Shown: positions 17,339 through 36,012 of the stretch, in pieces
Layout of the letters: every line of letters starts with the position of its first letter
How positions within the stretch are numbered: position 1 is the first letter of the stretch
Virus record (IMG/VR): IMGVR_UViG_2654587772_000001
Source of the DNA: a virus
Taxonomy: Duplodnaviria; Heunggongvirae; Uroviricota; Caudoviricetes
Strand: one strand, 5' to 3'
Length of the DNA stretch: 36,012 nt
The notes under the pieces: generated by a model
The model's database searches: none
Told to the model about the DNA's origin: nothing
Seen by the model: the letters and a program-made list of their open reading frames with translations, nothing else
Program-made: the position numbers and the translations under genes

Positions 17339-17352
17339 ACGGAGTAAACACC

Positions 17353-18766: not shown

Positions 18767-19220
18767 GTTTAAGCGTTTTGAAGACCGGCTGACCGGACTG
18801 ATTGAGTCGCTGTCACCGTCAGGGCGTCGTCGACTGGCGGTAGATATTGCGAAGAAGCTGCGCCAGCGCCAGCAGCAGCGAATTAAATTACAAAAAGCCC
18901 CGGATGGTACGCCGTATGTACCGAGAAAAAACCAACCAGTACGAAATAAGAAAGGCCGGATAAAGCGGGAAATGTTTATGAAATTACGCACTAACCGGTT
19001 TATGAAAGCAACCGGTAGCGAGAGTGCCGCGGTGGTGGAGTTTGCCAGCGGAGTGCAACGAATTGCGCGAGTGCATCAGTATGGTTTAAAAGATAGACCC
19101 AATCCCGACGTTAAACCTATTAAGTATGATGAACGTAAACTACTTGGTTTTTCACATAATGATATTGACTTTATAGAATCAACGATCATTAATTGTCTTC
19201 TGGAAAAATCCAGAGAATAG
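18759..19220 (+). CDS. S: tail completion protein S (3' end divergent and AT-rich)
   Basis: 153-aa ORF; N-terminus matches P2 gpS; the last roughly 45 codons are AT-rich. Confidence 0.8.
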   Translation: MNEFKRFEDRLTGLIESLSPSGRRRLAVDIAKKLRQRQQQRIKLQKAPDGTPYVPRKNQPVRNKKGRIKREMFMKLRTNRFMKATGSESAAVVEFASGVQRIARVHQYGLKDRPNPDVKPIKYDERKLLGFSHNDIDFIESTIINCLLEKSRE

Positions 19221-19235
19221 GAAGGTAAAGTACAA

Positions 19236-19775: not shown

Positions 19776-19785
19776 AGGTTTTTGT

Positions 19786-21138
19786 ATGTCCATAAAGAGT
19801 ATTTATTTAGTATTAGATGAAAGGCTGGAAGAGATAATTTCAAAATCAAAATCGCAATCAGTCCATGATGCTATATTTGAATCAGTGGATAATACACAGT
19901 TGGCCACGGAGAGCTTAAGTAAATCTTCTGGTTTCGTAAGAAGTTCTATTTCATTGAAAAAAGATGTAGGTGGAGCTGATGTTCAAAGTTATCAGGTGAA
20001 AGATATTGTTAGAAATAAATTTGGCAAGCACGGTCCACTCATGACAAGTTTTGGATGTCATCCGGACTTTAATAAAATGGATGATGGTGAGGTGAGAAAT
20101 GGTTATTCCATTACCATGTTTATGGATATAATCGGCTCAACTAAACTTGGGGTTGTTTTTCCACCAGAAATAGTATTTAGAATCAAAAATGATATTATAA
20201 GATGTGCGATCGAAACAGTGAATGCATTTGATGGTCACGTCCATAGAATTATGGGTGATGCAGTAATGGCATTTTTCCGAAGTAATGACCGATATAAAAA
20301 CAATAAGATCGCAGACAGTGCAATTGATGCAATAAACTGTGCCGTTGTTTTGATTGAAATGTTCAAGGGGGTTGTTATACCTAAATTGAGTGATTTGGGA
20401 GTTGACGAAAACTTAGGAATAAGAATTGGTCTTGACTATGGCCCTCACGAGGAAGTGGTGTGGTCAAAATATGGCTATATGGAAAGTCATGAAGTGACTG
20501 CGACATCTTTTTTTGTTGATGTTGCGGCAAAACTTCAGCAAAAAGCTCCTAAAAACTCAATTATGATAGGTGCAAGTTTTGTAGAGTTATTAGGCCTTGA
20601 TGATGTTCAATTAAAACATAAAATTAACAGAAACAATGGCGTAGAACACAAGGAATTGTATTTAACCCCAAATTATAAAGATGCTTCAGGCAAACCAATA
20701 AATTACAGACAATATGTATTTGATAACGAACGTTATTGTAATTTGCTGCCTATAAATGATGAGGGGGGTAAACTCATTGTAAAAGCAACGCTTAAGAAGA
20801 GTGAAAATGATGTGTCTGATGATGAGTATATTTGTTGTTCTCGAATGATAAAAAAGGGTATGGGTATCTCATTTAAAGGGTACTATTACTCACAAGAACA
20901 GTACTCTAATCCCAGGTTCAAATTTCGTGTCGAAAATACAGGTCCTGATGCAGGTAATGTTGATAATAAGGGTAATCATGAGTCATATGAGGTAGCAAGG
21001 TACACTGGCGAGCGTTATTTTGCTAAGCATTGGGAAGATTGTCATTACAAAGGACTGCATTATATGTTTGTATCTTTTTGGAATGGGGATCAATTAATAG
21101 AAAGGGAGAGGTGTTTTTCAGTTTTTATTAACGATTAA
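19786..21138 (+). CDS. class III nucleotidyl cyclase-domain protein (candidate PycC-like cyclase)
   Basis: 450 aa from ATG 19786 (SD GAAGG 8 nt upstream; track start 19750 overlaps the upstream gene); motifs SITMFMDIIGSTKL (aa 108-121), HRIMGDAVMAFF (153-164), GIRIGLDYGP (211-220), SFFVDVAAKL (241-250) resembling the FxDIxGFT / IGDxxMA / GIHxGxV / VNxAARL blocks of adenylyl/guanylyl-type cyclases. Confidence 0.7.
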   Translation: MSIKSIYLVLDERLEEIISKSKSQSVHDAIFESVDNTQLATESLSKSSGFVRSSISLKKDVGGADVQSYQVKDIVRNKFGKHGPLMTSFGCHPDFNKMDDGEVRNGYSITMFMDIIGSTKLGVVFPPEIVFRIKNDIIRCAIETVNAFDGHVHRIMGDAVMAFFRSNDRYKNNKIADSAIDAINCAVVLIEMFKGVVIPKLSDLGVDENLGIRIGLDYGPHEEVVWSKYGYMESHEVTATSFFVDVAAKLQQKAPKNSIMIGASFVELLGLDDVQLKHKINRNNGVEHKELYLTPNYKDASGKPINYRQYVFDNERYCNLLPINDEGGKLIVKATLKKSENDVSDDEYICCSRMIKKGMGISFKGYYYSQEQYSNPRFKFRVENTGPDAGNVDNKGNHESYEVARYTGERYFAKHWEDCHYKGLHYMFVSFWNGDQLIERERCFSVFIND

Positions 21139-21238
21139 ATTGTGATTTATTTGAGGGGGGGAATGTAGTCTGTTGTATCATACCTCACCAAAGCATCAAA
21201 ATTTGCCGCTAGTGTAAACTAGCGGCATCCTTCCCGTT

Positions 21239-21874
21239 ATGAACACTCTCGCAAATATTCAGGAACTCGCGCGCGCACTGCGCAACATGATTCGCACCGG
21301 CATTATCATCGAAACCGACCTTAACGCCGGTCGCTGCCGTGTGCAGACCGGCGGCATGTGCACCGACTGGCTTCAGTGGCTGACCTGTCGTGCCGGGCGT
21401 TCGCGCACATGGTGGGCACCTTCCGTGGGGGAGCAGGTGCTGATTCTGGCCGTGGGCGGTGAACTTGACACGGCGTTTGTTCTGCCGGGGATTTATTCCG
21501 GCGATAACCCCGCGCCGTCTGCGTCGGCGGATGCCCTGCATATCCGTTTCCCTGACGGGGCGGTGATTGAGTATGAACCCGAAACCAGTGCACTCACGGT
21601 AAGCGGAATTAAAACGGCCAGCGTGACGGCTTCTGATTCTGTTACTGCCACGGTGCCGGTGGTCACGGTGAAAGCATCAACCCGCGTCACCCTGGACACA
21701 CCGGAGGTGGTCTGCACCAACAGGCTGATTACCGGCACGCTGGAAGTGCAGAAGGGCGGGACGATGCGCGGCAACATTGAACACACCGGCGGTGAACTCT
21801 CATCAAACGGTAAGGTACTGCATACCCATAAACACCCCGGCGACAGCGGCGGCACAACCGGGAGTCCTCTATGA
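21239..21874 (+). CDS. V: baseplate spike protein V
   Basis: 211-aa ORF; P2 gpV length and sequence. Confidence 0.9.
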   Translation: MNTLANIQELARALRNMIRTGIIIETDLNAGRCRVQTGGMCTDWLQWLTCRAGRSRTWWAPSVGEQVLILAVGGELDTAFVLPGIYSGDNPAPSASADALHIRFPDGAVIEYEPETSALTVSGIKTASVTASDSVTATVPVVTVKASTRVTLDTPEVVCTNRLITGTLEVQKGGTMRGNIEHTGGELSSNGKVLHTHKHPGDSGGTTGSPL

Positions 21875-22218
21875 CAGCGCGTTATCTCGGAATGAATCGC
21901 AGTGATGGCCTGACTGTCACTGACCTTGAGCATATCAGCCAGAGTATCGGCGATATCCTGCGCACACCGGTCGGCTCACGGGTGATGCGTCGTGATTACG
22001 GCTCGTTGCTGGAGTCAATGATTGACCAGCCGCAGACCCCGGCGCTTGAGTTGCAGATTAAGGTCGCCTGTTACATGGCGGTGCTGAAATGGGAACCCCG
22101 CGTCACCCTGTCATCCGTCACCACTGAGCGCAGTTTTGACGGGCGAATGACGGTCACGTTAACCGGCCAGCACAACGACACCGGCCAGCCACTTTCGTTA
22201 ACCATCCCTGTGAGTTGA
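21871..22218 (+). CDS. W: baseplate wedge protein W (gp25-like)
   Basis: 115-aa ORF overlapping the V stop; P2 gpW length. Confidence 0.9.
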   Translation: MTARYLGMNRSDGLTVTDLEHISQSIGDILRTPVGSRVMRRDYGSLLESMIDQPQTPALELQIKVACYMAVLKWEPRVTLSSVTTERSFDGRMTVTLTGQHNDTGQPLSLTIPVS

Positions 22219-22222
22219 AACC

Positions 22223-23131
22223 ATGCCGATTATCGACCTGAACCAGCTACCCGCACCGGATGTGGTCGAGGAGCTGGACTTTGAAACCATTCTTGCCGAA
22301 CGCAAGGCGACACTGATTTCCCTTTACCCGGAAGACCAGCAGGAGGCGGTCGCCCGTACCCTGACGCTGGAATCCGAGCCTCTCGTCAAACTGCTGGAGG
22401 AAAATGCTTATCGTGAGCTTATCTGGCGTCAGCGTGTGAATGAGGCCGCACGGGCGGTGATGCTGGCCTGTGCCGCCGGTAATGACCTTGATGTGATTGG
22501 TGCCAATTACAACACCACGCGCCTGATTATCACCCCGGCAGATGATTCGACTATCCCGCCGACACCGGCAGTGATGGAGTCTGACACCGATTATCGTCTG
22601 CGTATTCAGCAGGCGTTTGAAGGTTTAAGCGTCGCCGGGTCGGTGGGGGCCTATCAGTATCATGGTCGAAGTGCCGACGGGCGTGTCGCGGATATCTCTG
22701 TCACCAGTCCTTCTCCGGCCTGCGTCACCATCTCTGTGCTGTCACGTGAAAATAACGGTGTCGCATCCGAAGACCTGCTGGCGGTGGTGCGTAACGCCCT
22801 TAATGGCGAGGACGTCAGGCCGGTGGCCGACCGCGTGACCGTGCAGTCTGCCGCCATCGTTGAATACCAGATAAACGCCACGCTTTACCTTTACCCTGGT
22901 CCCGAAAGCGAACCCATCCGCGCCGCCGCCGTGAAAAAACTGGAAGCGTACGTCACGGCACAGCACCGGCTGGGGCGCGACATCCGTCTGTCTGCCATTT
23001 ATGCCGCTTTGCATGTGGAAGGCGTGCAGCGTGTCGAACTGGCTGCACCGCTGGCCGATATCGTGCTTAACAGCACGCAGGCGTCTTTCTGCACCGAATA
23101 CCGCGTCGTGACCGGAGGCTCGGATGAGTGA
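22223..23131 (+). CDS. J: baseplate protein J
   Basis: 302-aa ORF; P2 gpJ length. Confidence 0.9.
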   Translation: MPIIDLNQLPAPDVVEELDFETILAERKATLISLYPEDQQEAVARTLTLESEPLVKLLEENAYRELIWRQRVNEAARAVMLACAAGNDLDVIGANYNTTRLIITPADDSTIPPTPAVMESDTDYRLRIQQAFEGLSVAGSVGAYQYHGRSADGRVADISVTSPSPACVTISVLSRENNGVASEDLLAVVRNALNGEDVRPVADRVTVQSAAIVEYQINATLYLYPGPESEPIRAAAVKKLEAYVTAQHRLGRDIRLSAIYAALHVEGVQRVELAAPLADIVLNSTQASFCTEYRVVTGGSDE

Positions 23132-23735
23132 TTCGCGCCTGCTGCCGACCGGCTCATCACCGCTTGAAGTCGCCGCCGCAAAAGCCTGTGCGGAAATTGA
23201 AAAAACGCCGGTCAGTATTCGTGAACTGTGGAACCCGGATACCTGCCAGGCAAATCTGCTGCCGTGGCTGGCGTGGTCATTTTCGGTTGACCGCTGGGAT
23301 GATAAGTGGCCGGAAGCGACAAAACGCGCTGTTATCCGCGATGCGTATTTCATTCACTGTCATAAAGGCACTATAGGTGCAATCCGGCGTGTGGTGGAGC
23401 CGCTCGGCTATCTGATTGAGGTGAGGGAGTGGTGGCAGCTCAACGAGGAGCCGGGGACGTTCCGTATCGTTGTTGGCGTGCTTGAGCAGGGTATTACCGA
23501 AGAAATGTATCAGGAGCTGGAGCGCCTCGTTGCTGATGCAAAACCGGCGAGCCGCCATCTGACGGGACTGGCTATCAGTTTAAGTACAACCGGCAACATT
23601 TTTGCCGGTGCGGGATGCTATCACGGCGACGCCCTGACGGTTTATCCCTACACCCCGGAGGCCATTATTGTCGGAGGGGATTATTTCCCGGCCTCGGCCA
23701 TTCATTTAATTGATAACCTGAGAGTAAACGCATGA
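23124..23735 (+). CDS. I: baseplate protein I
   Basis: 203-aa ORF overlapping the J stop; P2 gpI-like sequence. Confidence 0.85.
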   Translation: MSDSRLLPTGSSPLEVAAAKACAEIEKTPVSIRELWNPDTCQANLLPWLAWSFSVDRWDDKWPEATKRAVIRDAYFIHCHKGTIGAIRRVVEPLGYLIEVREWWQLNEEPGTFRIVVGVLEQGITEEMYQELERLVADAKPASRHLTGLAISLSTTGNIFAGAGCYHGDALTVYPYTPEAIIVGGDYFPASAIHLIDNLRVNA

Positions 23736-25057
23736 CAGTGAAATACTACGCCATTCTGACTAATCAGGGCGCAGCACGGCTGGCTAACGCGACGATGCTC
23801 GGCAGTAAGCTGAATCTGACGCAAATGGCCGTTGGTGATGCGAATGGTGTCTTGCCGACACCAGACCCGGCACAGACAAAACTGATTAACCAGAAACGCA
23901 TCGCGCCGCTGAATCTTCTGAGTGTTGACCCGAACAACCAGAGCCAGATTATTGCGGAGCAAATCATCCCTGAGAACGAGGGCGGATTCTGGATCCGTGA
24001 GATTGGGCTTTATGATGATGAAGGCGTACTCATTGCGGTGGCGAACTGCCCGGAAACGTACAAACCGCAGTTGCAGGAAGGCAGTGGTCGTACCCAGACT
24101 ATCCGCATGATTCTGGTTGTCACGAATACCGAAGCTATCACGCTGAAAATCGACCCGTCGGTGGTACTGGCGACCCGTAAATACGTGGATGATGAAGTCC
24201 TGGAATTAAAGCTGTATGTGGATGACCAGATGAGAAACCACATTGCCGCACAGGATCCTCATACCCAGTATGCGCAGAAACATAATCCGACATTTACCGG
24301 AGAACCAAAAGCGCCGACGCCTGCCGCAGGAAATAACACCACGCGGATTGCGACCACTGAGTTTGTTCAGGCCGCTATTACCGCTCTGATTAACGGTGCG
24401 CCAGCCACACTGGACACACTGAAAGAAATTGCCGCGGCCATTAACAATGACCCGAAATTCAGCACCACCATTAACAATGCGCTGTCAGGTAAGCAGCCAC
24501 TGGATGAGACGCTGACTCATTTGAGTGGAAAGGATGTAGCTGGTCTTCTCGCATACCTTGGTTTGGGAGAAGGTTCTGCGTTGCCTGTTGGCATACCAGT
24601 TCCTTGGCCTTCAGCTACGCCGCCAACAGGCTGGCTGAAATGCAACGGGGCTGCTTTTTCGGCTGAAGAATACCCGGAACTGGCAAAGGCTTACCCGACA
24701 AATAAATTGCCTGATTTACGTGGTGAGTTTATTCGTGGCTGGGATGACGGGCGGGGGATTGATACAGGTCGCTCTATTTTAAGTATTCAGGGGTATGCAA
24801 CGGAGGATCATGCTCATGGATTACCGTCAAGATCCACGATTGTGACTGATGCAACGATTAATTTCTATTTTGATGAAAGCTGGGTAAATAGTGGCACTGA
24901 CATTATCAAAAGAGGAAACACAAACGATGCTGGATTACCAGCACCGGATTATGGAACCTTTAAAACATATAAACAATCAGTGGCTGGTTTAGGTGCCGCA
25001 GCCTCAGAAACGCGTCCGCGTAATATTGCATTTAACTATATCGTGAGGGCAGCCTGA
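23732..25057 (+). CDS. H: tail fibre protein H (constant N-terminal part plus currently expressed variable C-terminus)
   Basis: 441-aa ORF; N-terminus MTVKYYAILTNQGAARLANA as in P2 gpH; C-terminal tail-collar/receptor-binding-like region; crossover site inside the gene. Confidence 0.85.
   Translation: MTVKYYAILTNQGAARLANATMLGSKLNLTQMAVGDANGVLPTPDPAQTKLINQKRIAPLNLLSVDPNNQSQIIAEQIIPENEGGFWIREIGLYDDEGVLIAVANCPETYKPQLQEGSGRTQTIRMILVVTNTEAITLKIDPSVVLATRKYVDDEVLELKLYVDDQMRNHIAAQDPHTQYAQKHNPTFTGEPKAPTPAAGNNTTRIATTEFVQAAITALINGAPATLDTLKEIAAAINNDPKFSTTINNALSGKQPLDETLTHLSGKDVAGLLAYLGLGEGSALPVGIPVPWPSATPPTGWLKCNGAAFSAEEYPELAKAYPTNKLPDLRGEFIRGWDDGRGIDTGRSILSIQGYATEDHAHGLPSRSTIVTDATINFYFDESWVNSGTDIIKRGNTNDAGLPAPDYGTFKTYKQSVAGLGAAASETRPRNIAFNYIVRAA
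24548..24573. repeat. invertase crossover site (hix/gix-like), left copy inside H
   Basis: The reverse complement TTCTCCCAAACCAAGGTATGCGA matches TTCTCTCAAACCAACGTTTTATGG at 26455..26480 (14/15 over the conserved core stretch); resembles hix/gix sites. Confidence 0.45.
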
Positions 25058-25659
25058 TGCATAAAGCAATATTAAATAGTGAGCTCATTGCAACAAAGGC
25101 AGGGGATGTTACCGTTTATAACTATGATGGTGAAACACGGGAATATATTTCCACTTCAAATGAATATCTTGCCGTTGGTGTCGGCATTCCGGCATGTTCC
25201 TGTTTAGATGCCCCTGGCACACATAAGGCTGGTTATGCAATCTGCCGTTCTGCAGATTTTAACTCATGGGAATATGTGCCAGACCATCGCGGTGAAACGG
25301 TCTATAGCACCGAAACAGGAGAATCAAAAGAAATCACCGCTCCGGGTGATTACCCTGAAAATACAACCACTATCGCCCCATTAACGCCATATGATAAATG
25401 GGATGGTGAGAAATGGGTGACGGATACCGAGGCACAGCATAGCGCCGCAGTAGATGCAGCAGAAGCACAGCGCCAGTCGCTGATTGATACTGCAATGGCT
25501 TCCATCAGTCTGATTCAACTGAAATTGCAGGCCGGACGTAAACTGACGCAGGCAGAAACAACCCGGCTTAACGCTGTGCTGGATTACATTGACGCGGTGA
25601 CGGCAACAGATACCAGCACCGCGCCGGATGTCATCTGGCCTGAACTGCCGGAGGCGTAG
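25057..25659 (+). CDS. G: tail fibre assembly chaperone (G / Tfa)
   Basis: 200-aa ORF with start overlapping the H stop; Tfa-like sequence with conserved C-terminal region (RLNAVLDYIDAVTATDTSTAPDVIWPELP). Confidence 0.8.
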   Translation: MHKAILNSELIATKAGDVTVYNYDGETREYISTSNEYLAVGVGIPACSCLDAPGTHKAGYAICRSADFNSWEYVPDHRGETVYSTETGESKEITAPGDYPENTTTIAPLTPYDKWDGEKWVTDTEAQHSAAVDAAEAQRQSLIDTAMASISLIQLKLQAGRKLTQAETTRLNAVLDYIDAVTATDTSTAPDVIWPELPEA

Positions 25660-26083
25660 GCCATTCAATATCTGGTGCACTGGAGGTATCAACCAGCTCC
25701 AGTGCATCCAGATAATCCAGCCACAAATTATATTGCGCCAGTTCCTCACCTTTCAGACGACCAATAGCGGCTTTACCGGGCCATTGCTTACTGTTCATGT
25801 ATTCGTTGGCCTGGTTAATTAGTAGCTGTCTTTCTGATTCAGTAATTTCAATAAGCTCTTCATGCGTGGGTGGAGGAATATCTGCCCACGCAGGCAGCCC
25901 ATCATCTCCGGCAATACGGATTTTTCCTTGTGGCGGTTCAGCCATAAACTCACTGATAATATTTTGATTTACTTCCTTAGCGTCTGATAAATCCCATCCC
26001 TCTGATTTATATTTATCAATCATATCCACAGGGAAAAAAGCATTATGCCTTGCGCTATAAACATATTCGTTCATATAAATCAC
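25631..26083 (-). CDS. alternative tail fibre assembly chaperone (inverted orientation)
   Basis: 150-aa ORF convergent with G, with related C-terminus (YNLWLDYLDALELVDTSSAPDIEWPTPP). Confidence 0.7.
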   Translation of the reverse strand: MIYMNEYVYSARHNAFFPVDMIDKYKSEGWDLSDAKEVNQNIISEFMAEPPQGKIRIAGDDGLPAWADIPPPTHEELIEITESERQLLINQANEYMNSKQWPGKAAIGRLKGEELAQYNLWLDYLDALELVDTSSAPDIEWPTPPAVQAR

Positions 26084-26094
26084 CCTGAATAAAA

Positions 26095-26463
26095 TTACTC
26101 ACCAACAGCCCACCAACTGTAATTCATCGATACCGTGTCGCTGGTTGATGACGTTCTGTAAGCAGAATTAAAGCCGGTTAACGTTGGGCCTTCTGCAGTC
26201 ATCACGAACCCTCGCCCAGCGCCTAAAGGCGCACCGCCATCACCAGAATGAGTAAGCATGGCGCAGTCCGCTTTTTTGGGGAAAGGGATGCTGAATGTAA
26301 TTCTCATTGTTTGCGTCGATAATGTCGGCGTAACCGCACCACGACCATATTGCAGGATTTTCCCGTTGGGTAATTTCATCCATCCATCACCACTGGCAAA
26401 AGAGGCCATGTCCGGTATCTGATTTTCCCCTGTCCCCACATCCCGTTTTGCCGCTTCTCTCAA
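26095..26463 (-). CDS. alternative tail fibre C-terminal segment (promoter-less and start-less; would fuse to H after inversion)
   Basis: Open frame on the minus strand running to the crossover site at about 26466 with no credible own start; Gly/Thr/Ser-rich fibre-tip-like sequence. Confidence 0.6.
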   Translation of the reverse strand: MREAAKRDVGTGENQIPDMASFASGDGWMKLPNGKILQYGRGAVTPTLSTQTMRITFSIPFPKKADCAMLTHSGDGGAPLGAGRGFVMTAEGPTLTGFNSAYRTSSTSDTVSMNYSWWAVGE

Positions 26464-26480
26464 ACCAACGTTTTATGGAA
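26455..26480. repeat. invertase crossover site (hix/gix-like), right copy
   Basis: TTCTCTCAAACCAACGTTTTATGGAA; inverted-repeat partner of 24548..24573. Confidence 0.45.
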
Positions 26481-26570
26481 TCGGTTAAATATGATGTTGA
26501 AAGAAGGGAGTGTCCTAGTATTGATTGTTAGATAAAAATGGAAAGTGCTGATTGTAACGGTATATTTTAA

Positions 26571-26598
26571 GATGGTAACACCAAATGGTGCTACCATC
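26571..26598. terminator. candidate bidirectional rho-independent terminator
   Basis: Hairpin GATGGTAACACC-AAAT-GGTGCTACCATC followed by TTTATT on the + strand and by an A/T-rich tract on the - strand; lies just downstream of the minus-strand 105-aa gene. Confidence 0.4.
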
Positions 26599-26606
26599 TT
26601 TATTAG

Positions 26607-26924
26607 TTATCTGTTCCTTCTGAGGATTCCGCTACTCCCTTGTGTTGTAGGGTTTAATTTTTTCCAATAATGATAACCTTGTGATGTAATCCTTAGAGAG
26701 GCAGTATCTACACTCCATCCATCAATACTTTCAGGAGAACCATCGAAGATTACCTTTCCTGTAAGATACCCATCGTCATGCAGAAAGGCGATATATCCAT
26801 AAACTTCTTTTAAATCACCAATTTCATTGACTAGGCGTTCCCACGCTTGAACAGTGATTCTCTCTGGATAGGCTTCGACAAAATATTTCAGTGTGGTAGT
26901 TTTTTTATTGGTATCGATGTTCAT
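26607..26924 (-). CDS. hypothetical protein (AT-rich moron between the invertible segment and the invertase)
   Basis: 105-aa ORF with ATG at 26924 and a good SD (AAGGAAA) upstream on the minus strand; AT-rich; no recognisable motif. Confidence 0.5.
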   Translation of the reverse strand: MNIDTNKKTTTLKYFVEAYPERITVQAWERLVNEIGDLKEVYGYIAFLHDDGYLTGKVIFDGSPESIDGWSVDTASLRITSQGYHYWKKLNPTTQGSSGILRRNR

Positions 26925-27122
26925 CAGATTTTCCTTTTATTGAGGTCAACCTATCTTACCATACTTATTTGTTTCACATGGGAATGCTAAGTGGGCTATG
27001 TATCCACTATCAGTAAATATTCTTATCCAGCAAGATTACTGTAACTGAGAGCTCCATAGCCTTGTCCGCTTGTACATATATAGATAATTCTGTGTCATTA
27101 TTCTGTTTTTATAGGGATTTTT

Positions 27123-27716
27123 ATGCGTATAGGTTATGTTCGTGTATCAACAAATGACCAGAACACGGAATTGCAGCGTAACGCGCTCGAGTGCGCAGGA
27201 TGTGAGCTGATTTTTGAGGATAAAATCAGCGGCACGAAGTCCGACCGACCGGGGCTGAAAAAACTGCTCAGAACATTATCAGCAGGTGACACTCTGGTAG
27301 TCTGGAAGCTGGACAGGCTGGGGCGTAGTATGCGGCATCTGGTCATTCTGGTTGAGGAACTGCGCGAACGCGGCATTAATTTTCGCAGCCTGACAGATGC
27401 TATTGATACCAGCACGCCGATGGGGCGTTTTTTCTTTCATGTGATGGGTGCCCTGGCTGAAATGGAACGAGAACTCATTGTCGAACGGACTCGGGCCGGG
27501 CTGGAAGCGGCCAGAGCCAAAGGTCGTATTGGTGGCAGACGTCCTAAACTCACCACGAGTGAGTGGGAGCAGGTCGGGCGTTTGCTGGCTGCAGGGGAGT
27601 CACGTCAACGCGTGGCACTGATTTTTGATATTGGCCTGTCCACGCTCTATAAAAAATTTCCCTCATCAGCGATAAAGAATAAATTGTGTCATCCCTTAGC
27701 CAACCGGGACAAATAG
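27123..27716 (+). CDS. serine DNA invertase (Hin/Gin/Pin/Cin family)
   Basis: 197-aa ORF; N-terminal resolvase catalytic domain with GYVRVST-DQ (Ser nucleophile), LVVWKLDRLGRS, and a C-terminal HTH; closely resembles Hin/Gin. Confidence 0.9.
   Translation: MRIGYVRVSTNDQNTELQRNALECAGCELIFEDKISGTKSDRPGLKKLLRTLSAGDTLVVWKLDRLGRSMRHLVILVEELRERGINFRSLTDAIDTSTPMGRFFFHVMGALAEMERELIVERTRAGLEAARAKGRIGGRRPKLTTSEWEQVGRLLAAGESRQRVALIFDIGLSTLYKKFPSSAIKNKLCHPLANRDK
27684..27710 (+). promoter_or_regulatory. late-promoter upstream element (candidate PF) TTGTGTCATCCCTTAGCCAACCGGGAC
   Basis: 21/27 identical to the element upstream of O (13146..13172); ends about 66 nt before the FI start; lies inside the 3' end of the invertase gene. 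Confidence 0.45.
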
Positions 27717-27775
27717 CCTGACATCTCCGGCACAACTGAAAATATCACTCACCCATTAACCACGGAGTTAAACGG

Positions 27776-28966
27776 ATGAGTGACTATCATCACGGCGTGC
27801 AGGTGCTGGAGATTAACGACGGCACCCGCGTCATTTCCACCGTATCCACTGCCATTGTCGGCATGGTCTGCACGGCCAGCGATGCGGATGCGGAAACCTT
27901 CCCCCTCAATAAACCTGTGCTGATTACCAATGTGCAGAGCGCAATTGCAAAGGCCGGTAAAAAAGGCACGCTGGCGGCATCGTTGCAGGCCATCGCCGAC
28001 CAGTCAAAACCGGTCACCGTTGTCGTGCGTGTGGAAGACGGCACCGGCGACGACGAGGAAACGAAACTCGCGCAGACTGTTTCCAATATCATCGGCACCA
28101 CCGACGAAAACGGTCAGTACACCGGACTGAAAGCCCTGCTGGCGGCGGAGTCTGTTACCGGTGTTAAACCGCGTATTCTCGGCGTGCCGGGACTGGACAC
28201 CAAAGAGGTGGCTGTTGCACTGGCATCAGTCTGTCAGAAGCTGCGCGCTTTCGGATATATCAGCGCATGGGGCTGTAAGACCATTTCCGAGGTGAAAGCC
28301 TACCGCCAGAATTTCAGCCAGCGTGAGCTGATGGTCATCTGGCCGGATTTCCTCGCATGGGATACGGTCACCAGTACCACCGCCACCGCGTATGCCACCG
28401 CCCGTGCGCTGGGTCTGCGCGCTAAAATCGACCAGGAGCAGGGCTGGCATAAAACGCTGTCCAACGTCGGGGTGAACGGTGTTACCGGCATCAGCGCCTC
28501 TGTATTCTGGGATTTGCAGGAGTCCGGCACCGATGCTGACCTGCTTAATGAGTCAGGCGTCACTACGCTGATTCGCCGCGACGGTTTCCGCTTCTGGGGT
28601 AACCGTACCTGCTCTGATGACCCGCTGTTCCTCTTTGAAAACTACACCCGCACCGCGCAGGTGCTGGCCGACACGATGGCTGAGGCGCACATGTGGGCGG
28701 TGGACAAGCCCATCACCGCAACGCTGATTCGCGACATCGTTGACGGCATCAATGCCAAATTCCGTGAGCTGAAAACAAACGGCTATATCGTGGATGCGAC
28801 CTGCTGGTTCAGCGAAGAATCCAACGATGCGGAAACCCTCAAGGCCGGAAAACTGTATATCGACTACGACTATACCCCGGTGCCTCCTCTTGAAAACCTG
28901 ACCCTGCGCCAGCGTATCACCGATAAATACCTGGCAAATCTGGTCACCTCGGTTAACAGCAATTAA
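27776..28966 (+). CDS. FI: tail sheath protein FI
   Basis: 396-aa ORF; P2 gpFI length and sequence. Confidence 0.95.
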   Translation: MSDYHHGVQVLEINDGTRVISTVSTAIVGMVCTASDADAETFPLNKPVLITNVQSAIAKAGKKGTLAASLQAIADQSKPVTVVVRVEDGTGDDEETKLAQTVSNIIGTTDENGQYTGLKALLAAESVTGVKPRILGVPGLDTKEVAVALASVCQKLRAFGYISAWGCKTISEVKAYRQNFSQRELMVIWPDFLAWDTVTSTTATAYATARALGLRAKIDQEQGWHKTLSNVGVNGVTGISASVFWDLQESGTDADLLNESGVTTLIRRDGFRFWGNRTCSDDPLFLFENYTRTAQVLADTMAEAHMWAVDKPITATLIRDIVDGINAKFRELKTNGYIVDATCWFSEESNDAETLKAGKLYIDYDYTPVPPLENLTLRQRITDKYLANLVTSVNSN

Positions 28967-28978
28967 GGAGCCTGACCG

Positions 28979-29497
28979 ATGGCAATGCCGCGCAAACTCA
29001 AGTTAATGAACGTCTTTCTGAACGGCTACAGCTATCAGGGCGTTGCAAAGTCCGTCACGCTGCCCAAACTGACCCGTAAGCTCGAAAACTATCGCGGTGC
29101 GGGGATGAACGGCAGCGCACCGGTAGACCTCGGCCTTGATGACGATGCGCTGTCAATGGAGTGGTCGCTCGGGGGCTTCCCGGATTCGGTTATCTGGGAG
29201 CTTTACGCCGCAACCGGTGTGGATGCCGTACCGATTCGTTTTGCAGGCTCTTACCAGCGTGACGATACCGGCGAAACGGTGGCCGTCGAGGTGGTCATGC
29301 GTGGACGTCAGAAAGAAATCGACACCGGCGAGGGTAAACAGGGAGAAGACACCGAGTCGAAAATCTCCGTGGTCTGCACCTATTTCCGGCTGACGATGGA
29401 CGGTAAGGAGCTGGTCGAAATTGACACCATCAACATGATTGAGAAGGTGAACGGCGTCGACCGGCTGGAGCAACACCGCCGCAATATCGGCCTGTGA
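28979..29497 (+). CDS. FII: tail tube protein FII
   Basis: 172-aa ORF; P2 gpFII length. Confidence 0.95.
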   Translation: MAMPRKLKLMNVFLNGYSYQGVAKSVTLPKLTRKLENYRGAGMNGSAPVDLGLDDDALSMEWSLGGFPDSVIWELYAATGVDAVPIRFAGSYQRDDTGETVAVEVVMRGRQKEIDTGEGKQGEDTESKISVVCTYFRLTMDGKELVEIDTINMIEKVNGVDRLEQHRRNIGL

Positions 29498-29553
29498 TTT
29501 TCATCCGGTCAGCCTGGCTGACCGGTTAACCCCGATTCATAAGTGAGAAAACC

Positions 29554-29829
29554 ATGAACAAAGAAAATGTGATTACCCTGGACAATCCGGTTAAACGTGG
29601 TGAGCAGGTTATCGAACAGGTCACGCTGATGAAACCCAATGCCGGGACGCTGCGCGGTGTCAGTCTGGCAGCGGTCGCAAACTCTGAAGTCGATGCACTG
29701 ATTAAGGTGCTGCCGCGCATGACTGCACCGATGCTGACCGAGCAGGAAGTCGCCGCACTGGAACTGCCTGACCTTGTGGCGCTGGCCGGTAAGGTGGTCG
29801 GTTTTTTGTCGCCGAACTCGGTGCAGTGA
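29554..29829 (+). CDS. E: tail assembly chaperone E
   Basis: 91-aa ORF upstream of the tape measure gene; P2 gpE length. Confidence 0.85.
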   Translation: MNKENVITLDNPVKRGEQVIEQVTLMKPNAGTLRGVSLAAVANSEVDALIKVLPRMTAPMLTEQEVAALELPDLVALAGKVVGFLSPNSVQ

Positions 29830-29981
29830 CGTTTCCGAAAAATCTCTCGGTCGATGACCTGATGGCGGATGTGGCAGTGATATTTCACTGGCCGCCATCA
29901 GAACTGTATCCCATGAGCCTGACCGAACTCATCACATGGCGCGAAAAGGCGCTCCGGCGAAGCGGAAACACGAATGAGTAA
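29554..29981 (+). CDS. E': tail assembly chaperone E+E' (predicted -1 programmed frameshift product, about 142 aa)
   Basis: Slippery T TTT TTG at 29802..29808 near the end of E; the -1 frame is open to TAA at 29979..29981, giving 85+57 codons, about the P2 E+E' length; overlaps the T start. Confidence 0.6.
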
Positions 29982-32421
29982 CAATGTAAAATTACAGGTA
30001 TTGCTCAGGGCTGTTGACCAGGCATCCCGCCCGTTTAAATCCATCCGCACAGCGAGCAGGTCGCTGTCGGGCGATATCCGGGAAACACAAAAATCACTGC
30101 GCGAGCTGAACGGTCACGCATCCCGTATTGAGGGATTTCGCAAGACCAGTGCACAGCTCGCCGTGACTGGTCATGCACTTGAAAAGGCTCGGCAGGAGGC
30201 CGAAGCCCTTGCCACACAGTTTAAAAACACCGAACGTCCGACCCGTGCTCAGGCGAAAGTGCTGGAATCCGCAAAGCGTGCGGCGGAGGACTTACAGGCG
30301 AAATATAACCGCCTGACGGATTCCGTTAAACGCCAGCAGCGGGAACTGGCCGCTGTGGGAATTAATACCCGCAATCTTGCACATGATGAGCAGGGACTGA
30401 AAAACCGTATCAGTGAAACCACCGCACAGCTTAACCGTCAGCGTGACGCGCTGGCGCGTGTCAGTGCGCAACAGGCAAAACTTAACGCAGTAAAACAGCG
30501 TTATCAGGCCGGAAAGGAACTGGCCGGAAATATGGCCTCAGTGGGCGCTGCCGGTGTGGGGATTGCGGCGGCGGGAACGATGGCCGGTGTTAAGCTGCTG
30601 ATGCCCGGTTATGAGTTTGCGCAGAAAAACTCAGAATTGCAGGCTGTGCTGGGAGTGGCAAAAGACTCCGCCGAAATGACCGCACTCCGCAAGCAGGCGC
30701 GCCAGCTCGGCGACAATACCGCAGCCTCGGCAGATGATGCAGCCGGTGCACAGATAATCATCGCGAAAGCGGGTGGGGATGTTGATGCCATTCAGGCGGC
30801 AACGCCGGTCACGCTGAATATGGCGCTGGCGAACCGCCGCACGATGGAAGAAAACGCCGCCCTGCTGATGGGGATGAAATCCGCCTTTCAGCTTTCAAAC
30901 GATAAGGTCGCTCATATCGGGGATGTTCTCTCCATGACGATGAACAAAACCGCCGCCGATTTTGACGGCATGAGCGATGCGCTGACCTATGCCGCACCTG
31001 TGGCAAAAAATGCCGGTGTCAGCATTGAAGAAACCGCCGCAATGGTCGGGGCGCTGCATGATGCAAAAATCACAGGCTCAATGGCGGGGACGGGAAGCCG
31101 TGCCGTGTTAAGCCGCCTGCAGGCACCGACGGGAAAAGCATGGGATGCACTCAAAGAGCTTGGAGTGAAAACCTCAGACAGCAAGGGAAACACCCGGCCA
31201 ATATTTACCATTCTGAAAGAAATGCAGGCCAGTTTTGAGAAAAACCGGCTCGGTACTGCCCAGCAGGCTGAATACATGAAAACTATTTTCGGGGAGGAGG
31301 CCAGCTCAGCCGCCGCCGTGCTGATGACTGCCGCCTCAACCGGAAAGCTGGACAAACTGACCGCTGCGTTTAAAGCCTCAGACGGGAAGACCGCCGAGCT
31401 GGTAAATATCATGCAGGACAACCTAGGCGGTGACTTTAAGGAGTTTCAGTCTGCTTATGAGGCGGTGGGGACTGACCTGTTTGACCAGCAGGAAGGCGCA
31501 CTGCGTAATCTCACGCAGACGGCCACAAAGTATGTGTTAAAACTCGACGGCTGGATCCAGAAAAACAAATCACTGGCGTCAACCATCGGACTTATTGTCG
31601 GTGGCGCACTGGCGCTTATTGGCATCATCGGTGCAATTGGTCTTGTAGCCTGGTCGGTTATCACCGGCATCAATGCCATCATCGCGGCAGCAGGCGCAAT
31701 GGGGGCAATCTTCACGACGGTTGGCAGTGCTGTTATGACGGCCATCGGGGCGATTAGCTGGCCGGTTGTGGCCGTGGTGGCCGCCATTGTCGCCGGGGCG
31801 TTGCTTATCCGTAAATACTGGGAGCCTGTCAGCGCATTCTTTGGCGGTGTGGTGGAAGGGCTGAAAGCGGCATTTGCGCCGGTGGGGGAACTGTTCACGC
31901 CACTTAAACCGGTTTTTGACTGGCTGGGTGAAAAGTTACAGGCCGCGTGGCAGTGGTTTAAAAACCTGATTGCCCCGGTTAAAGCCACCCAGGACACCCT
32001 GAACCGTTGCCGTGACACGGGGGTCATGTTCGGGCAGGCACTGGCTGACGCGCTGATGCTGCCGCTTAATGCGTTCAACAAACTGCGCAGCGGTATTGAC
32101 TGGGTACTGGAAAAACTCGGTGTTATCAACAAAGAGTCAGACACACTTGACCAGACCGCCGTCAGAACTCATGCCGCCACGTATGGCACCGGTGGTTATA
32201 TTCCGGCGACCAGCTCTTATGCAGGTTATCAGGCTTATCAGCCGGTTACGGCACCGGCTGGCCGCTCTTATGTGGACCAGAGTAAAAACGAATATCACAT
32301 CAGCCTGACGGGTGGTACTGCGCCGGGGACACAGCTTGACCGCCAGTTACAGGATGCGCTCGAAAAATACGAGCGGGATAAACGTGCGCGCGCCCGTGCC
32401 AGCATGATGCATGACGGTTAA
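29974..32421 (+). CDS. T: tail tape measure protein T
   Basis: 815-aa ORF; coiled-coil N-terminal half and Gly/Ala-rich hydrophobic segment; P2 gpT length. Confidence 0.9.
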   Translation: MSNNVKLQVLLRAVDQASRPFKSIRTASRSLSGDIRETQKSLRELNGHASRIEGFRKTSAQLAVTGHALEKARQEAEALATQFKNTERPTRAQAKVLESAKRAAEDLQAKYNRLTDSVKRQQRELAAVGINTRNLAHDEQGLKNRISETTAQLNRQRDALARVSAQQAKLNAVKQRYQAGKELAGNMASVGAAGVGIAAAGTMAGVKLLMPGYEFAQKNSELQAVLGVAKDSAEMTALRKQARQLGDNTAASADDAAGAQIIIAKAGGDVDAIQAATPVTLNMALANRRTMEENAALLMGMKSAFQLSNDKVAHIGDVLSMTMNKTAADFDGMSDALTYAAPVAKNAGVSIEETAAMVGALHDAKITGSMAGTGSRAVLSRLQAPTGKAWDALKELGVKTSDSKGNTRPIFTILKEMQASFEKNRLGTAQQAEYMKTIFGEEASSAAAVLMTAASTGKLDKLTAAFKASDGKTAELVNIMQDNLGGDFKEFQSAYEAVGTDLFDQQEGALRNLTQTATKYVLKLDGWIQKNKSLASTIGLIVGGALALIGIIGAIGLVAWSVITGINAIIAAAGAMGAIFTTVGSAVMTAIGAISWPVVAVVAAIVAGALLIRKYWEPVSAFFGGVVEGLKAAFAPVGELFTPLKPVFDWLGEKLQAAWQWFKNLIAPVKATQDTLNRCRDTGVMFGQALADALMLPLNAFNKLRSGIDWVLEKLGVINKESDTLDQTAVRTHAATYGTGGYIPATSSYAGYQAYQPVTAPAGRSYVDQSKNEYHISLTGGTAPGTQLDRQLQDALEKYERDKRARARASMMHDG

Positions 32422-32435
32422 GGAGGTGACGAAAA

Positions 32436-32915
32436 ATGATGCTCGCGTTAGGTATGTTTGTTTTTATGCGCCAGACGCTGCCACACCAGACCATGCAGCG
32501 TGAATCAGATTATCGCTGGCCATCAAATTCCCGTATCGGCAAACGGGATGCCTTTCAATTTCTCGGTGTGGGTGAGGAAAACATCACGCTTGCCGGTGTG
32601 CTTTATCCCGAACTGACCGGCGGAAAGCTGACGATGACCACGCTCAGGCTGATGGCAGAGGAAGGCCGGGCGTGGCCGTTGCTGGATGGCACAGGCATGA
32701 TTTACGGCATGTATGTCATCAGCAGGGTGAGTGAAACAGGGAGTATTTTCTTTGCAGACGGCACACCCCGGAAAATTGATTTTACGCTGTCACTCACCCG
32801 CGTGGATGAATCACTGGCCGCGCTTTATGGCGATATCGGTAAACAGGCGGAGTCGCTCATCGGTAAGGCCGGTAGTCTGGCGACCAGATTCACGGGGATG
32901 ACGGGGGCGGAATAA
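32436..32915 (+). CDS. U: tail protein U
   Basis: 159-aa ORF; P2 gpU length. Confidence 0.9.
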   Translation: MMLALGMFVFMRQTLPHQTMQRESDYRWPSNSRIGKRDAFQFLGVGEENITLAGVLYPELTGGKLTMTTLRLMAEEGRAWPLLDGTGMIYGMYVISRVSETGSIFFADGTPRKIDFTLSLTRVDESLAALYGDIGKQAESLIGKAGSLATRFTGMTGAE

Positions 32916-34078
32916 TGCTGGATGCGCTGACATTTGATGCAGGCAGTACGCTGACGCCGGATTACATGCTGATGCTCGACAGCAGGGATATTACCGGCAA
33001 TATCAGCGACCGTCTGATGAGCATGACCCTGACGGATAACCGGGGCTTTGAGGCTGATCAGCTTGATATTGAACTGAACGATGCCGACGGGCAGGTCGAA
33101 CTGCCGGTTCGTGGCGCTGTCCTGACGGTGTATATCGGCTGGAAAGGTTTTGCCCTGGTATGCAAAGGGAAATTCACCGTTGATGAGGTAGAACACCGGG
33201 GCGCGCCGGATGTGGTCACCATCCGGGCCCGGAGTGCAGATTTTCGTGGCACGCTCAATTCCCGCCGTGAAGGCTCCTGGCATGACACCACGCTCGGTGC
33301 GATTGTTGAGGCGATAGCCTCCCGTAACAGGCTGGAAGCCAGTGTCGCTCCGTCACTGGCCGGAATTAAAATCCCGCACATCGACCAGTCGCAGGAGTCT
33401 GATGCAAAATTCCTGACCCGCCTTGCTGAACGCAACGGCGGTGAGGTGTCGGTAAAAATGGGAAAACTGTTGTTTCTCAAAGCGGGGCAGGGGGTGACGG
33501 CCAGCGGTAAAAAAATCCCGCAGGTCACCATAACCCGCAGCGACGGCGACCGCCATCATTTTGCGATTGCTGACCGTGGAGCCTATACCGGTGTAACGGC
33601 AAAGTGGTTACACACCAAAGACCCGAAGCCGCAAAAGCAGAAGGTAAAACTGAAACGCAAAAAGAAAGAGAAACACCTGCGCGCACTGGAGCACCCGAAA
33701 GCGAAACCAGTCACGCAGAAGAAAGCGCCAAAAGTACCGGAAGCGCGCGAAGGTGAATACATGGCCGGTGAGGCTGACAACGTTTTTGCACTGACCACGG
33801 TATATGCCACGAAAGCACAGGCCATGCGCGCCGCTCAGGCGAAGTGGGATAAACTGCAACGGGGCGTTGCGGAGTTCTCCATCAGCCTGGCTACCGGTCG
33901 GGCAGATATTTACACGGAAACACCGGTTAAAGTGTCAGGCTTTAAGCGCGTCATAGACGAGCAGGACTGGACAATCACTAAGGTGACACATTTTCTGAAT
34001 AATAGCGGCTTCACGACATCCCTAGAGCTTGAGGTCAGGCTTTCTGATGTGGAGTACGAAACAGAAGATGATGAGTGA
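32915..34078 (+). CDS. D: tail protein D (late control gene D)
   Basis: 387-aa ORF; P2 gpD length and position; overlaps the U stop. Confidence 0.9.
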   Translation: MLDALTFDAGSTLTPDYMLMLDSRDITGNISDRLMSMTLTDNRGFEADQLDIELNDADGQVELPVRGAVLTVYIGWKGFALVCKGKFTVDEVEHRGAPDVVTIRARSADFRGTLNSRREGSWHDTTLGAIVEAIASRNRLEASVAPSLAGIKIPHIDQSQESDAKFLTRLAERNGGEVSVKMGKLLFLKAGQGVTASGKKIPQVTITRSDGDRHHFAIADRGAYTGVTAKWLHTKDPKPQKQKVKLKRKKKEKHLRALEHPKAKPVTQKKAPKVPEAREGEYMAGEADNVFALTTVYATKAQAMRAAQAKWDKLQRGVAEFSISLATGRADIYTETPVKVSGFKRVIDEQDWTITKVTHFLNNSGFTTSLELEVRLSDVEYETEDDE

Positions 34079-34159
34079 TGTTTTTATTTTATCTATTTGT
34101 TTTATAGGGATAAATTAACTAAAATGGCACCATCAACAAAACCGGAAGAGGTGCTCGCG

Positions 34160-34378
34160 ATGTTTCATTGTCCTTTATGCCAGCATGCCGCACATGCGCG
34201 TACAAGTCGCTATATCACTGACACGACAAAAGAGCGTTATCACCAGTGTCAGAACGTGAATTGCAGCGCCACGTTCATCACTTATGAGTCGGTACAGCGA
34301 TACATCGTGAAGCCGGGAGAAGTCCACGCCGTAAGACCGCACCCGTTGCCGTCAGGGCAGCAAATTATGTGGATGTAA
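34160..34378 (+). CDS. ogr: late transcription activator Ogr (C4 zinc finger)
   Basis: 72 aa from ATG 34160 (MFHCPLCQHAAHARTSRYITDTTKERYHQCQNVNCSATF...); CxxC...CxxxxC zinc motif; track ORF starts upstream. Confidence 0.9.
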   Translation: MFHCPLCQHAAHARTSRYITDTTKERYHQCQNVNCSATFITYESVQRYIVKPGEVHAVRPHPLPSGQQIMWM

Positions 34379-34388
34379 TTACAAACAG

Positions 34389-34416
34389 AAAGCCCCTCAG
34401 TTGAGGGGCTTTTTTG
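34389..34416 (+). terminator. rho-independent terminator downstream of ogr
   Basis: Hairpin AGCCCCTC-AGTT-GAGGGGCT followed by TTTTTT. Confidence 0.7.
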
Positions 34417-34479
34417 TCGATGTGGTCAATATGTGGACGTGACCAGAAATAAATCCTTTTATTTCAATTTGTTGTGCGT

Positions 34480-34506
34480 AAAAAATAAGCCCGTGTAAGG
34501 GAGATT
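34480..34506. repeat. attR core (27-bp direct repeat), also the 3' end of cyaR
   Basis: Identical to 476..502. Confidence 0.8.
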
Positions 34507-34566
34507 ACACAGGCTAAGGAGGTGGTTCCTGGTACAGCTAGCATTTTATGGGTTATGTTTTTCAGC
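34480..34566 (-). ncRNA. cyaR: CRP-dependent sRNA CyaR (RyeE)
   Basis: Reverse complement reads GCTGAAAAACATAACCCATAAAATGCTAGCTGTACCAGGAACCACCTCCTTAGCCTGTGTAATCTCCCTTACACGGGCTTATTTTTT (87 nt), matching the remembered E. coli CyaR, with a terminal hairpin and U-tail. Confidence 0.85.
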
Positions 34567-34596
34567 GAAACGGATGATAACCTTAATAAATGCAGC

Positions 34597-34618
34597 TGTA
34601 TGTGATCGGTTTCTAAGA
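34597..34618 (-). promoter_or_regulatory. candidate CRP-binding site of the cyaR promoter
   Basis: TGTGA-N6-TCTAA (TGTGATCGGTTTCTAA at 34601..34616) centred about 42 bp upstream of the CyaR 5' end, with a TATCAT -10-like hexamer in between; CyaR is known to be CRP-cAMP activated. Confidence 0.45.
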
Positions 34619-34650
34619 ATTTTCCATCCGGGAAAAATAATCGAAATTAA

Positions 34651-36012
34651 TCACTTACCGTGGGGGTTACGCGTGGTTTCCCCGGAGAAATTACGCATCA
34701 GCAGCGCGTAATTTAGCTCAAGATCCTGCGGCACCGGGATCCACACAGTATAACCATCGCCTGGTGCGACCGGCATAGCTTCACCTTTGGCGTTTTCCAT
34801 ATGCTCAAGGGTAAAGTTAATGTTGCCTTGCGGCGTCATCAGCTCAAGGCTGTCGCCAACGGAGAATTTATTTTTCACCGCTACCGCCGCGAGGTCGCCC
34901 TTGCGCTCACCGGTAAACTCACCAACAAACTGCTGGCGGTCAGAAACTGAATAACCGTATTCGTAGTTCTGATAATCGTCGTGAGTATGACGACGCAGGA
35001 AACCTTCGGTATAGCCACGATGCGCCAGACCTTCCAGAGTTTCCAGCAGGCTGGTATCGAATGGTTTTCCCGCAGCTGCGTCATCGATAGCTTTACGGTA
35101 AACCTGCGCGGTGCGTGCGCAATAGTAGAAAGATTTGGTACGGCCTTCGATTTTCAGCGAATGCACTCCCATTTTGGTCAGGCGTTCTACATGGGCGATG
35201 GCGCGCAGATCTTTCGAGTTCATGATGTAAGTGCCGTGCTCATCTTCAAACGCGGTCATATACTCGCCCGGACGCTGGGCCTCTTCGATCATAAACACTT
35301 TGTCGGTTGGTGCGCCGATACCCAGCGTCGGCTCAACATTTTGCACCGGAATCGGCTCGTACTTGTGTACGATGTTGCCAACGTCATCTTCTTTCCCTTC
35401 CTGGACGTTGTACTCCCAGCGGCAGGCGTTGGTGCAGGTGCCCTGGTTCGGGTCGCGCTTGTTGATATAGCCAGAGAGCAGGCAGCGACCGGAGTAGGCC
35501 ATGCACAGAGCGCCGTGAACGAAGATTTCGATCTCCATATTTGGCACCTGATTGCGGATCTCTTCAATCTCTTCCAGCGACAGCTCGCGAGAGAGGATCA
35601 CGCGGGTCAGGCCCATTTGCTGCCAGAATTTCACCGTCGCCCAGTTCACGGCGTTAGCCTGTACCGAGAGATGGATCGGCATTTCAGGGAAGTGCTCACG
35701 CACCAGCATAATCAGCCCTGGATCGGACATAATCAGCGCATCCGGCCCCATTTCCACCACCGGTTTCAGGTCACGGATAAAGGTTTTCAGCTTGGCGTTG
35801 TGCGGTGCAATGTTGACCACTACATAAAACTTTTTCCCCAGCGCGTGGGCTTCATTGATGCCGAGCTGAAGATTTTCGTGGTTGAATTCGTTGTTGCGCA
35901 CACGCAGGGAGTAACGCGGCTGGCCCGCATAAACAGCATCTGCGCCATAAGCGAAAGCGTAACGCATATTTTTCAGCGTTCCCGCCGGGGAAAGGAGTTC
36001 CGGTTTAAACAT
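34651..36012 (-). CDS. yegQ: U32-family peptidase-like protein YegQ/RlhA (23S rRNA hydroxylation factor), host flank
   Basis: 453-aa ORF (MFKPELLSPAGTLKNMRYAFAYGADAVYAGQPRYSL...) matching the remembered E. coli YegQ; start codon at the window edge. Confidence 0.85.
   Translation of the reverse strand: MFKPELLSPAGTLKNMRYAFAYGADAVYAGQPRYSLRVRNNEFNHENLQLGINEAHALGKKFYVVVNIAPHNAKLKTFIRDLKPVVEMGPDALIMSDPGLIMLVREHFPEMPIHLSVQANAVNWATVKFWQQMGLTRVILSRELSLEEIEEIRNQVPNMEIEIFVHGALCMAYSGRCLLSGYINKRDPNQGTCTNACRWEYNVQEGKEDDVGNIVHKYEPIPVQNVEPTLGIGAPTDKVFMIEEAQRPGEYMTAFEDEHGTYIMNSKDLRAIAHVERLTKMGVHSLKIEGRTKSFYYCARTAQVYRKAIDDAAAGKPFDTSLLETLEGLAHRGYTEGFLRRHTHDDYQNYEYGYSVSDRQQFVGEFTGERKGDLAAVAVKNKFSVGDSLELMTPQGNINFTLEHMENAKGEAMPVAPGDGYTVWIPVPQDLELNYALLMRNFSGETTRNPHGK

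Follow-up and report, generated by a model that had tools for sequence, protein, structure and literature searches.

The stretch of DNA considered in this study (the window, 36,012 nucleotides, from IMG/VR virus record IMGVR_UViG_2654587772_000001) begins and ends in bacterial genes. At the left lies yegR (1..318, + strand), assigned from the RefSeq annotation of the identical region of E. coli ST2747 and found as the same neighbour in K-12. At the right lies yegQ/trhP (34651..36012, - strand), assigned from RefSeq annotation. Between them, at 476..34506, is a whole P2-type (Peduovirus) prophage of 34,031 bp, counting the att core at each of its ends, recognized by its identity to P2 and by its gene order. 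The window was compared to the genome of E. coli ST2747 (NZ_CP007394.1) and proved to be 100% identical over both stretches searched, 34380..34700 and 330..760.

Adjoining the right end of the prophage, and next to yegQ/trhP as it is in K-12, is cyaR (ryeE), an intact 87-nt gene for an Hfq-dependent sRNA at 34480..34566 on the - strand. The assignment rests on two comparisons. In an Rfam scan of the whole window, the CyaR_RyeE model (RF00112) matched at 34483..34568 (- strand) with 100.7 bits, as against a gathering threshold of 47; the model was covered over its full length (1-85 of 85), and this was the sole match in the window above gathering score. The reverse complement of 34480..34566 was also aligned to cyaR of K-12 MG1655 (NC_000913.3, 2167114..2167200), the check that had been proposed for the original identification of the gene, and the two agree at 87 of 87 positions. 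The identity with MG1655 extends through a further 99 nt upstream of +1, which bears out the expectation that an intact cyaR with its promoter would be found at attR, here the junction proximal to ogr. The gene is absent from the RefSeq annotation of ST2747, where it should be listed as intact.

The promoter region contains the CRP-like site TGTGATCGGTTTCTAA (TGTGA-N6-TCTAA) at 34601..34616, corresponding to positions -35 to -50 of cyaR. Its computed centre, -42.5, agrees with the original prediction of a CRP-like site at about -42. The half-site pattern was dropped as evidence that could stand by itself, its frequency being no higher than in shuffled sequence: TGTGA-N6-TCACA, allowing up to 2 mismatches, matches the window 21 times, compared to 16 ± 4.5 times in shuffles, which is not above chance. 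The site is credible because its sequence is identical to that of the K-12 cyaR promoter, the CRP dependence of which is said to have been established in 2008 by Johansen and by Papenfort and in 2009 by De Lay and Gottesman. From the site at -42.5 and the identity of the promoter to that of K-12, one would predict that the gene is transcribed in dependence on cAMP-CRP and that its product represses targets of the ompX type with the help of Hfq.

CyaR ends in an intrinsic terminator at 34488..34515 (- strand), found both by folding and by a scan for terminators. It consists of an 11-bp stem, with arms AGCCUGUGUAA and UUACACGGGCU, a 6-nt loop (UCUCCC), and the U-rich tail UAUUUUUU, the Hfq-binding 3' end. 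Part of this structure coincides with a direct repeat. The 27-mer AAAAAATAAGCCCGTGTAAGGGAGATT occurs exactly twice in the window, at 476..502 and at 34480..34506, with 0 mismatches between the copies, and no chance matches to it arose in 100 shuffles that preserved dinucleotide composition. An independent search for repeats returned the same pair, imperfectly extended to 35 nt (468..502 and 34472..34506, 94% identical).

The copy at 34480..34506, the core of attR, maps to nt 61-87 of the 87-nt CyaR in the sense of the RNA, and is therefore the last 27 nt of CyaR, as had been proposed from the sequence. The further proposal that the core amounts to the terminator hairpin plus the U-tract must be narrowed. 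By the exact repeat and the fold, the core includes the 6-nt loop, the 11-nt 3' arm, and the tail, but of the 5' arm no more than its last 2 nt; the rest of that arm, 9 nt at 34507..34515, is chromosomal and lies outside the core. The copy at 476..502, the core of attL, is an orphan of the last 27 nt of cyaR at the junction proximal to int, thus the duplicated 3' fragment that was anticipated there. It does not form the terminator hairpin when folded, giving a stem of 3 bp at most, since those 9 nt of the 5' arm are bacterial and do not come with the core. The possibility that the fragment terminates transcription of int, or supplies another CyaR-like 3' end, was considered and rejected, in view of the 3-bp stem and the lack of a second CyaR in the Rfam scan.

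The element bracketed by these repeats resembles P2 throughout its backbone, the shared portions of which are about 97% identical to P2 and related Peduovirus genomes. Its genes run, as in P2, from left to right: int, C, cox, replication, portal/terminase, head, lysis, tail, D, and ogr. The gene for the tyrosine integrase, int (582..1595, - strand), encodes a protein identical to P2 Int at 335 of 337 positions, with the Pfam domains Int_N and Phage_integrase. It is followed by the gene for the helix-turn-helix immunity repressor C (1711..2010, - strand), assigned by RefSeq annotation and by its position, that of P2 gene C, and by cox (2125..2400, + strand), annotated by RefSeq as a "regulatory phage cox family protein" and assigned from the P2 map as the excision directionality factor and repressor of Pc. 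At the other end lies ogr, the gene for the activator of late genes (34160..34378, + strand; Pfam Ogr_Delta, 1.1e-21; RefSeq ogrK), which is convergent with cyaR. The intrinsic terminator of ogr and the late F operon follows at 34389..34412, corresponding to 24265..24288 in the P2 annotation, with a fold z of -4.8. The scan for terminators found the reverse face of this element (34412..34389, - strand) to be terminator-like as well.

The two ends of the prophage, when joined with a single copy of the core, give a sequence of 403 nt that matches P2 24176..24578 without gaps at 98.5% identity. The features annotated in this part of the P2 record are the ogr/F terminator, Int P arm, IHF site, attP core, Cox sites, and P' arm, and the annotated core (AF063097, 24356..24382) is identical to the 27-mer of the window. 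Projected onto the window, the Int P arm and IHF site of the former attP (P2 24293..24320 and 24324..24357) fall at 34417..34481, and the Cox-binding region and Int P' arm (P2 24399..24472 and 24470..24496) fall at 519..616. The view that a prophage had integrated into the 3' end of cyaR is thus upheld by a P2-type element delimited by a 27-bp repeat that is itself the P2 attP core. For purposes of annotation, the boundaries of the prophage are exactly 476 and 34506.

The state of the site in other genomes was assessed by searching 5,426 complete E. coli genomes with sequences spanning the junctions and with a reconstructed empty site. The junction of attL (bacterial flank, core, and end of int) is present in 810 of them, about 15%. 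In genomes lacking it, the alignment stops at position 173 of the query, equivalent to 502 in the window, the last base of the core. The junction of attR, with a P2-type right end beside cyaR, is present in 1,200 of the 5,426, and in the remainder the alignment begins at query positions 93-101, equivalent to 34472-34480 in the window; the few extra bases at this breakpoint are attributable to the imperfect 8-nt extension of the repeat. The empty site, reconstructed as yegR-core-cyaR-yegQ, is contiguous in 4,562 of the 5,426 genomes, a count that includes short remnants of the type found in K-12, because pieces less than about 750 bp apart were merged. The cyaR side was found in 5,423 of the 5,426 genomes, whether the site is occupied or not. 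The arrangement in which cyaR adjoins a P2-type right end characterizes 15-22% of E. coli genomes, K-12 included.

The exact 27-mer was also sought among the species representatives of all bacteria in GTDB. It appears only in records of Escherichia, Shigella, Kluyvera (about 12 species), and Enterobacter hormaechei, and none of the representatives of Salmonella, Klebsiella, or Citrobacter contains it. The exact target of P2 is therefore limited to a few genera, although CyaR is widespread. In 16 of 17 loci tested from other records, an Rfam match to CyaR has the 27-mer as its 3' end. The one exception is a second copy of the 27-mer in a contig of Escherichia ruysiae, consistent with an attL. 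The 27-mer may be taken as a reliable marker of P2-type insertion, which has occurred in roughly one in six complete E. coli genomes.

These results lead to the main conclusion, to which I assign a probability of about 0.97, that an E. coli prophage of the P2 type (Peduovirus) lies in the window, its tyrosine integrase having inserted it at the usual attachment site of P2, the 3' end of cyaR. The anatomy of the sequence, its identity to P2 attP and Int and to K-12 cyaR, and the occupied and empty states of the site across the population are matters of direct observation, and the structural reading may be regarded as confirmed, no contradicting evidence having been found. One might suppose instead that the 27-bp repeat is a coincidence or the scar of some recombination, and that a phage-like chromosomal island came to adjoin cyaR without integration. 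This is scarcely credible. Besides the failure of the shuffled sequences to produce a single match, the 27-mer falls within the coordinates of cyaR as given both by Rfam and by K-12, it is the annotated core of P2 attP, and both of the breakpoints seen in the population lie at the edges of the core. The idea is refuted by these considerations together with the ungapped match to attP and the identity of the gene to that of K-12.

The sequence of events by which integration at this site would leave cyaR whole can be drawn from what is established for P2 and for recombination of the lambda type. In P2 attP, the 27-bp core has the same sequence as nt 61-87 of cyaR, and strand exchange by Int, helped by IHF, would take place inside the core that attP and the 3' end of cyaR have in common. 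As the two recombining cores are identical, each junction would be left with a full one. At attR, the chromosomal part of cyaR (the CRP-dependent promoter, the seed, and those 9 nt of the terminator's 5' arm that lie outside the core) is joined to a core of the same sequence, so that the 87-nt gene, its terminator, and its Hfq-binding tail are unchanged. The sole change is in the DNA following the U-tract, from ATGCATAAGCC to ACGCACAACAA. At attL, the exchange would leave behind, downstream of int, the 27-nt fragment unable to form the hairpin. The expectation that integration preserves cyaR is borne out insofar as the gene is base-for-base identical to that of K-12. Normal expression of CyaR would be expected in the lysogen by the same established knowledge of recombination, and the host would keep a working regulator that forms part of the cAMP-CRP regulon.

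Preservation of the sequence need not mean preservation of the output. The original prediction raised the possibility that phage promoters might alter the level of CyaR in lysogens, a speculation that seems to me possible but unlikely. The amount of CyaR might change through convergent transcription from the phage, with transcription of ogr and the late F operon colliding with that of cyaR or running antisense to it, or else through a change in termination or in the fate of transcripts that read through. The geometry lends itself to the first mechanism, ogr and cyaR being convergent with ends about 100 bp apart. Ogr and the late F operon, however, provide the only phage transcription converging on cyaR, and the annotated terminator of that transcription intervenes, 68 bp before the 3' end of cyaR. 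The late promoters of P2, which depend on Ogr and on replication, are silent in lysogens, and a scan for promoters found no promoter-like site within 34050..34700. The second mechanism draws on the difference between lysogen and empty site in the sequence immediately after the U-tract, and on a report that the CyaR terminator is leaky, a plasmid double-terminator assay having given 41% read-through in a strain deleted for hfq (PMC9765468); a change in the DNA downstream could therefore alter the fate of read-through transcripts. In the lysogen, the reverse face of the ogr terminator (34412..34389) would confront such RNA with a second terminator-like hairpin, which the empty site does not offer; there, by folding, read-through RNA would meet a hairpin without a U-tract. 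Against this, the hairpin and U-tract of the CyaR terminator itself are unchanged, with a fold that is identical in the contexts of the lysogen and the empty site. The same arrangement is carried by the 15-22% of E. coli genomes noted above, and CyaR was characterized in K-12, where the right end of PR-X, a cryptic prophage, already adjoins cyaR. It is the intervening ogr/F terminator, the lack of a promoter-like site, and the presence of the same arrangement in K-12 that make altered levels of CyaR unlikely.

A different question is whether the element remains mobile or is, like PR-X of K-12, a decayed remnant no longer able to excise and propagate. One argument for decay is gene O, encoding the capsid scaffold/protease (13251..13865, + strand). 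Relative to P2 the gene has suffered an in-frame deletion of 240 bp (80 codons), with its junction near 13840 and two short sequences that resemble each other, TGATGCCC and TGACGCCC, on either side. The match to the Pfam profile Phage_GPO goes no farther than position 195 of 268, and RefSeq flags the gene as a pseudogene. A gene of the early operon encoding an orf80-like DUF2732 protein (about 3142..3366, + strand) is likewise a pseudogene according to RefSeq, by virtue of an internal stop. On the other side, the element has kept its full length of 34 kb, with two exact att cores and with int, C, cox, and ogr undamaged, and all other structural genes are annotated as intact. Moreover, the ability to excise is a question separate from that of assembling heads. 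Because of the deletion in gene O, head assembly may be defective, and present-day excision or production of virions is not assured; on balance I would put the odds that the element has become immobile at a little short of even.

The prophage also carries genes at positions where P2 has others. Three genes of a Lamassu system lie at 6538..9959 (+ strand), in the position of P2 tin/old, and encode LmuA (306 aa), LmuC (158 aa), and LmuB (673 aa), with PADLOC E-values of 1e-29, 2.5e-23, and 1e-98, respectively. None of the three has a match in Pfam, and RefSeq calls all of them hypothetical proteins. A Pycsar system lies at 19236..21138 (+ strand), between the tail genes S and V, in the position of P2 orf30. 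It consists of the effector PycTM (179 aa) and the cyclase PycC (about 450 aa), with PADLOC E-values of 8.5e-29 and 1.6e-128. The positions of tin/old and orf30 are known hotspots for defence genes (PMC13586616).

Farther along, the gene for a serine invertase (27123..27716; Resolvase, E = 4e-52) lies near opposed ORFs for a tail-fibre tip and fibre assembly (25631..26463, - strand). A search for repeats with a short seed found a crossover-like inverted pair, ACCTTGGTTTGGGAGAAG and CTTCTCTCAAACCAACGT, at 24555..24572 and 26454..26471; with a longer seed, no convincing long inverted repeats appeared around the invertase. The arrangement seen at 24555..27716 probably reflects an invertible host-range segment within gene H, replacing P2 fun(Z). 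Between the invertible segment and the invertase is an ORF of 105 aa (26607..26924, - strand) for which no match was found in Pfam, PHROGs, or PADLOC.

The bacterial side of attL holds a feature that bears on the history of the site. At 415..475, within the bacterial flank, is a degraded copy of a P2-type right end, recognized by the search for repeats and by local alignment and comprising what is left of the ogr terminator together with the Int P-arm site TCGATGTGGTCAAT. A family of direct repeats (D1) pairs 415..459 with 34402..34446 at 71% identity, and local alignment of 415..475 with the P-arm region of the phage gives a score of 33, as compared to 15.1 ± 2.3 in shuffles, with a maximum of 25. 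The arm-type repeat TCGATGTGGTCAAT lies 46 bp from the core. The same 14-mer is found, exact, in an unoccupied E. coli site (L004, 1681..1694) and, as a second copy, beside yegR in K-12 MG1655 (L001, 4365..4378). There is, then, a relic P2-type right end beside the core, and since it is present in unoccupied sites and in K-12, the "empty" cyaR site has the look of an ancient attR scar. The fuller reading, in which the empty site of Escherichia is such a P2-type scar and its relic arm, if still bound by Int, could contribute to the preference of P2 for cyaR or permit reactions of Int and Cox at "empty" sites, strikes me as quite improbable, and any function of the relic arm is speculation.

Among the closest known systems is phage P2 itself at locI, its preferred site in E. 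coli C, reportedly described by Barreiro and Haggard-Ljungquist in 1992. The cyaR site is probably locI, given the sequence identity found here. The prophage in the window shares with P2 an identical 27-bp core, an Int that is 99% identical, attP arms, IHF site, and Cox sites that are 98.5% identical, and the order attL-int-C-cox...D-ogr-attR. It differs from P2 in that Lamassu replaces tin/old, Pycsar replaces orf30, the invertase and invertible fibre segment stand in place of fun(Z), and gene O has lost 80 codons.

K-12 MG1655 provides a second point of comparison in PR-X (ogrK-yegZ, or "ogr-D'"), which in the RefSeq record overlaps the last 18 nt of cyaR. PR-X has the same site and the same orientation as the prophage considered here, and its P2-type right end (P arm, ogr terminator, and ogr) abuts the same core at the cyaR end. 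It differs in being a remnant of about 0.6 kb, while the element in the window is full length and retains both cores. The left junction of PR-X (L001, 4300..4340) consists of about 19 nt of the core and one extra A, fused to a fragment of gene D (yegZ). The deletion thus runs from inside the attL core, sparing roughly the first 19 nt, into gene D, and this structure shows that a full prophage once occupied the site and was reduced to PR-X by a deletion starting inside attL.

The use of cyaR/ryeE by P2-type phages has been published before, and the finding is in that sense correct but ordinary, since the classic P2 insertion site in E. coli is already documented. In a paper on the genome of E. 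coli W (Archer et al. 2011; PMC3032704), a table lists "cyaR RNA" as an insertion site occupied by Wphi2 (P2) in W, by ogr-D' in K-12, and by P2*B in strain B, and Bobay, Rocha and Touchon describe ryeE in E. coli as [quoted passage not shown] (PMC3603311). By that published table, Wphi2 of E. coli W and P2*B of E. coli B may be likened to the present element as P2-type prophages at cyaR, in other strains (PMC3032704).

More broadly, the site belongs with those of phage 186 (tRNA-Ile), Fels-2 and SopE-phi (ssrA), and the ryeA/ryeB hot spot of Salmonella, where attB overlaps the 3' end of a gene for a structured RNA (PMC3448106, PMC3603311). At sites of this type the target gene survives because the phage brings with it an identical replacement (PMC3448106, PMC3603311). 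The prophage at cyaR is a textbook example of this strategy, by which a temperate phage inserts into the gene for a structured RNA at its 3' end and brings along the replacement. Unlike those insertions in genes for tRNA, tmRNA, and other sRNAs, the target here is the terminator of an Hfq-dependent sRNA, and the duplication extends no farther than the loop and the 3' half of the stem, as opposed to the whole stem-loop.
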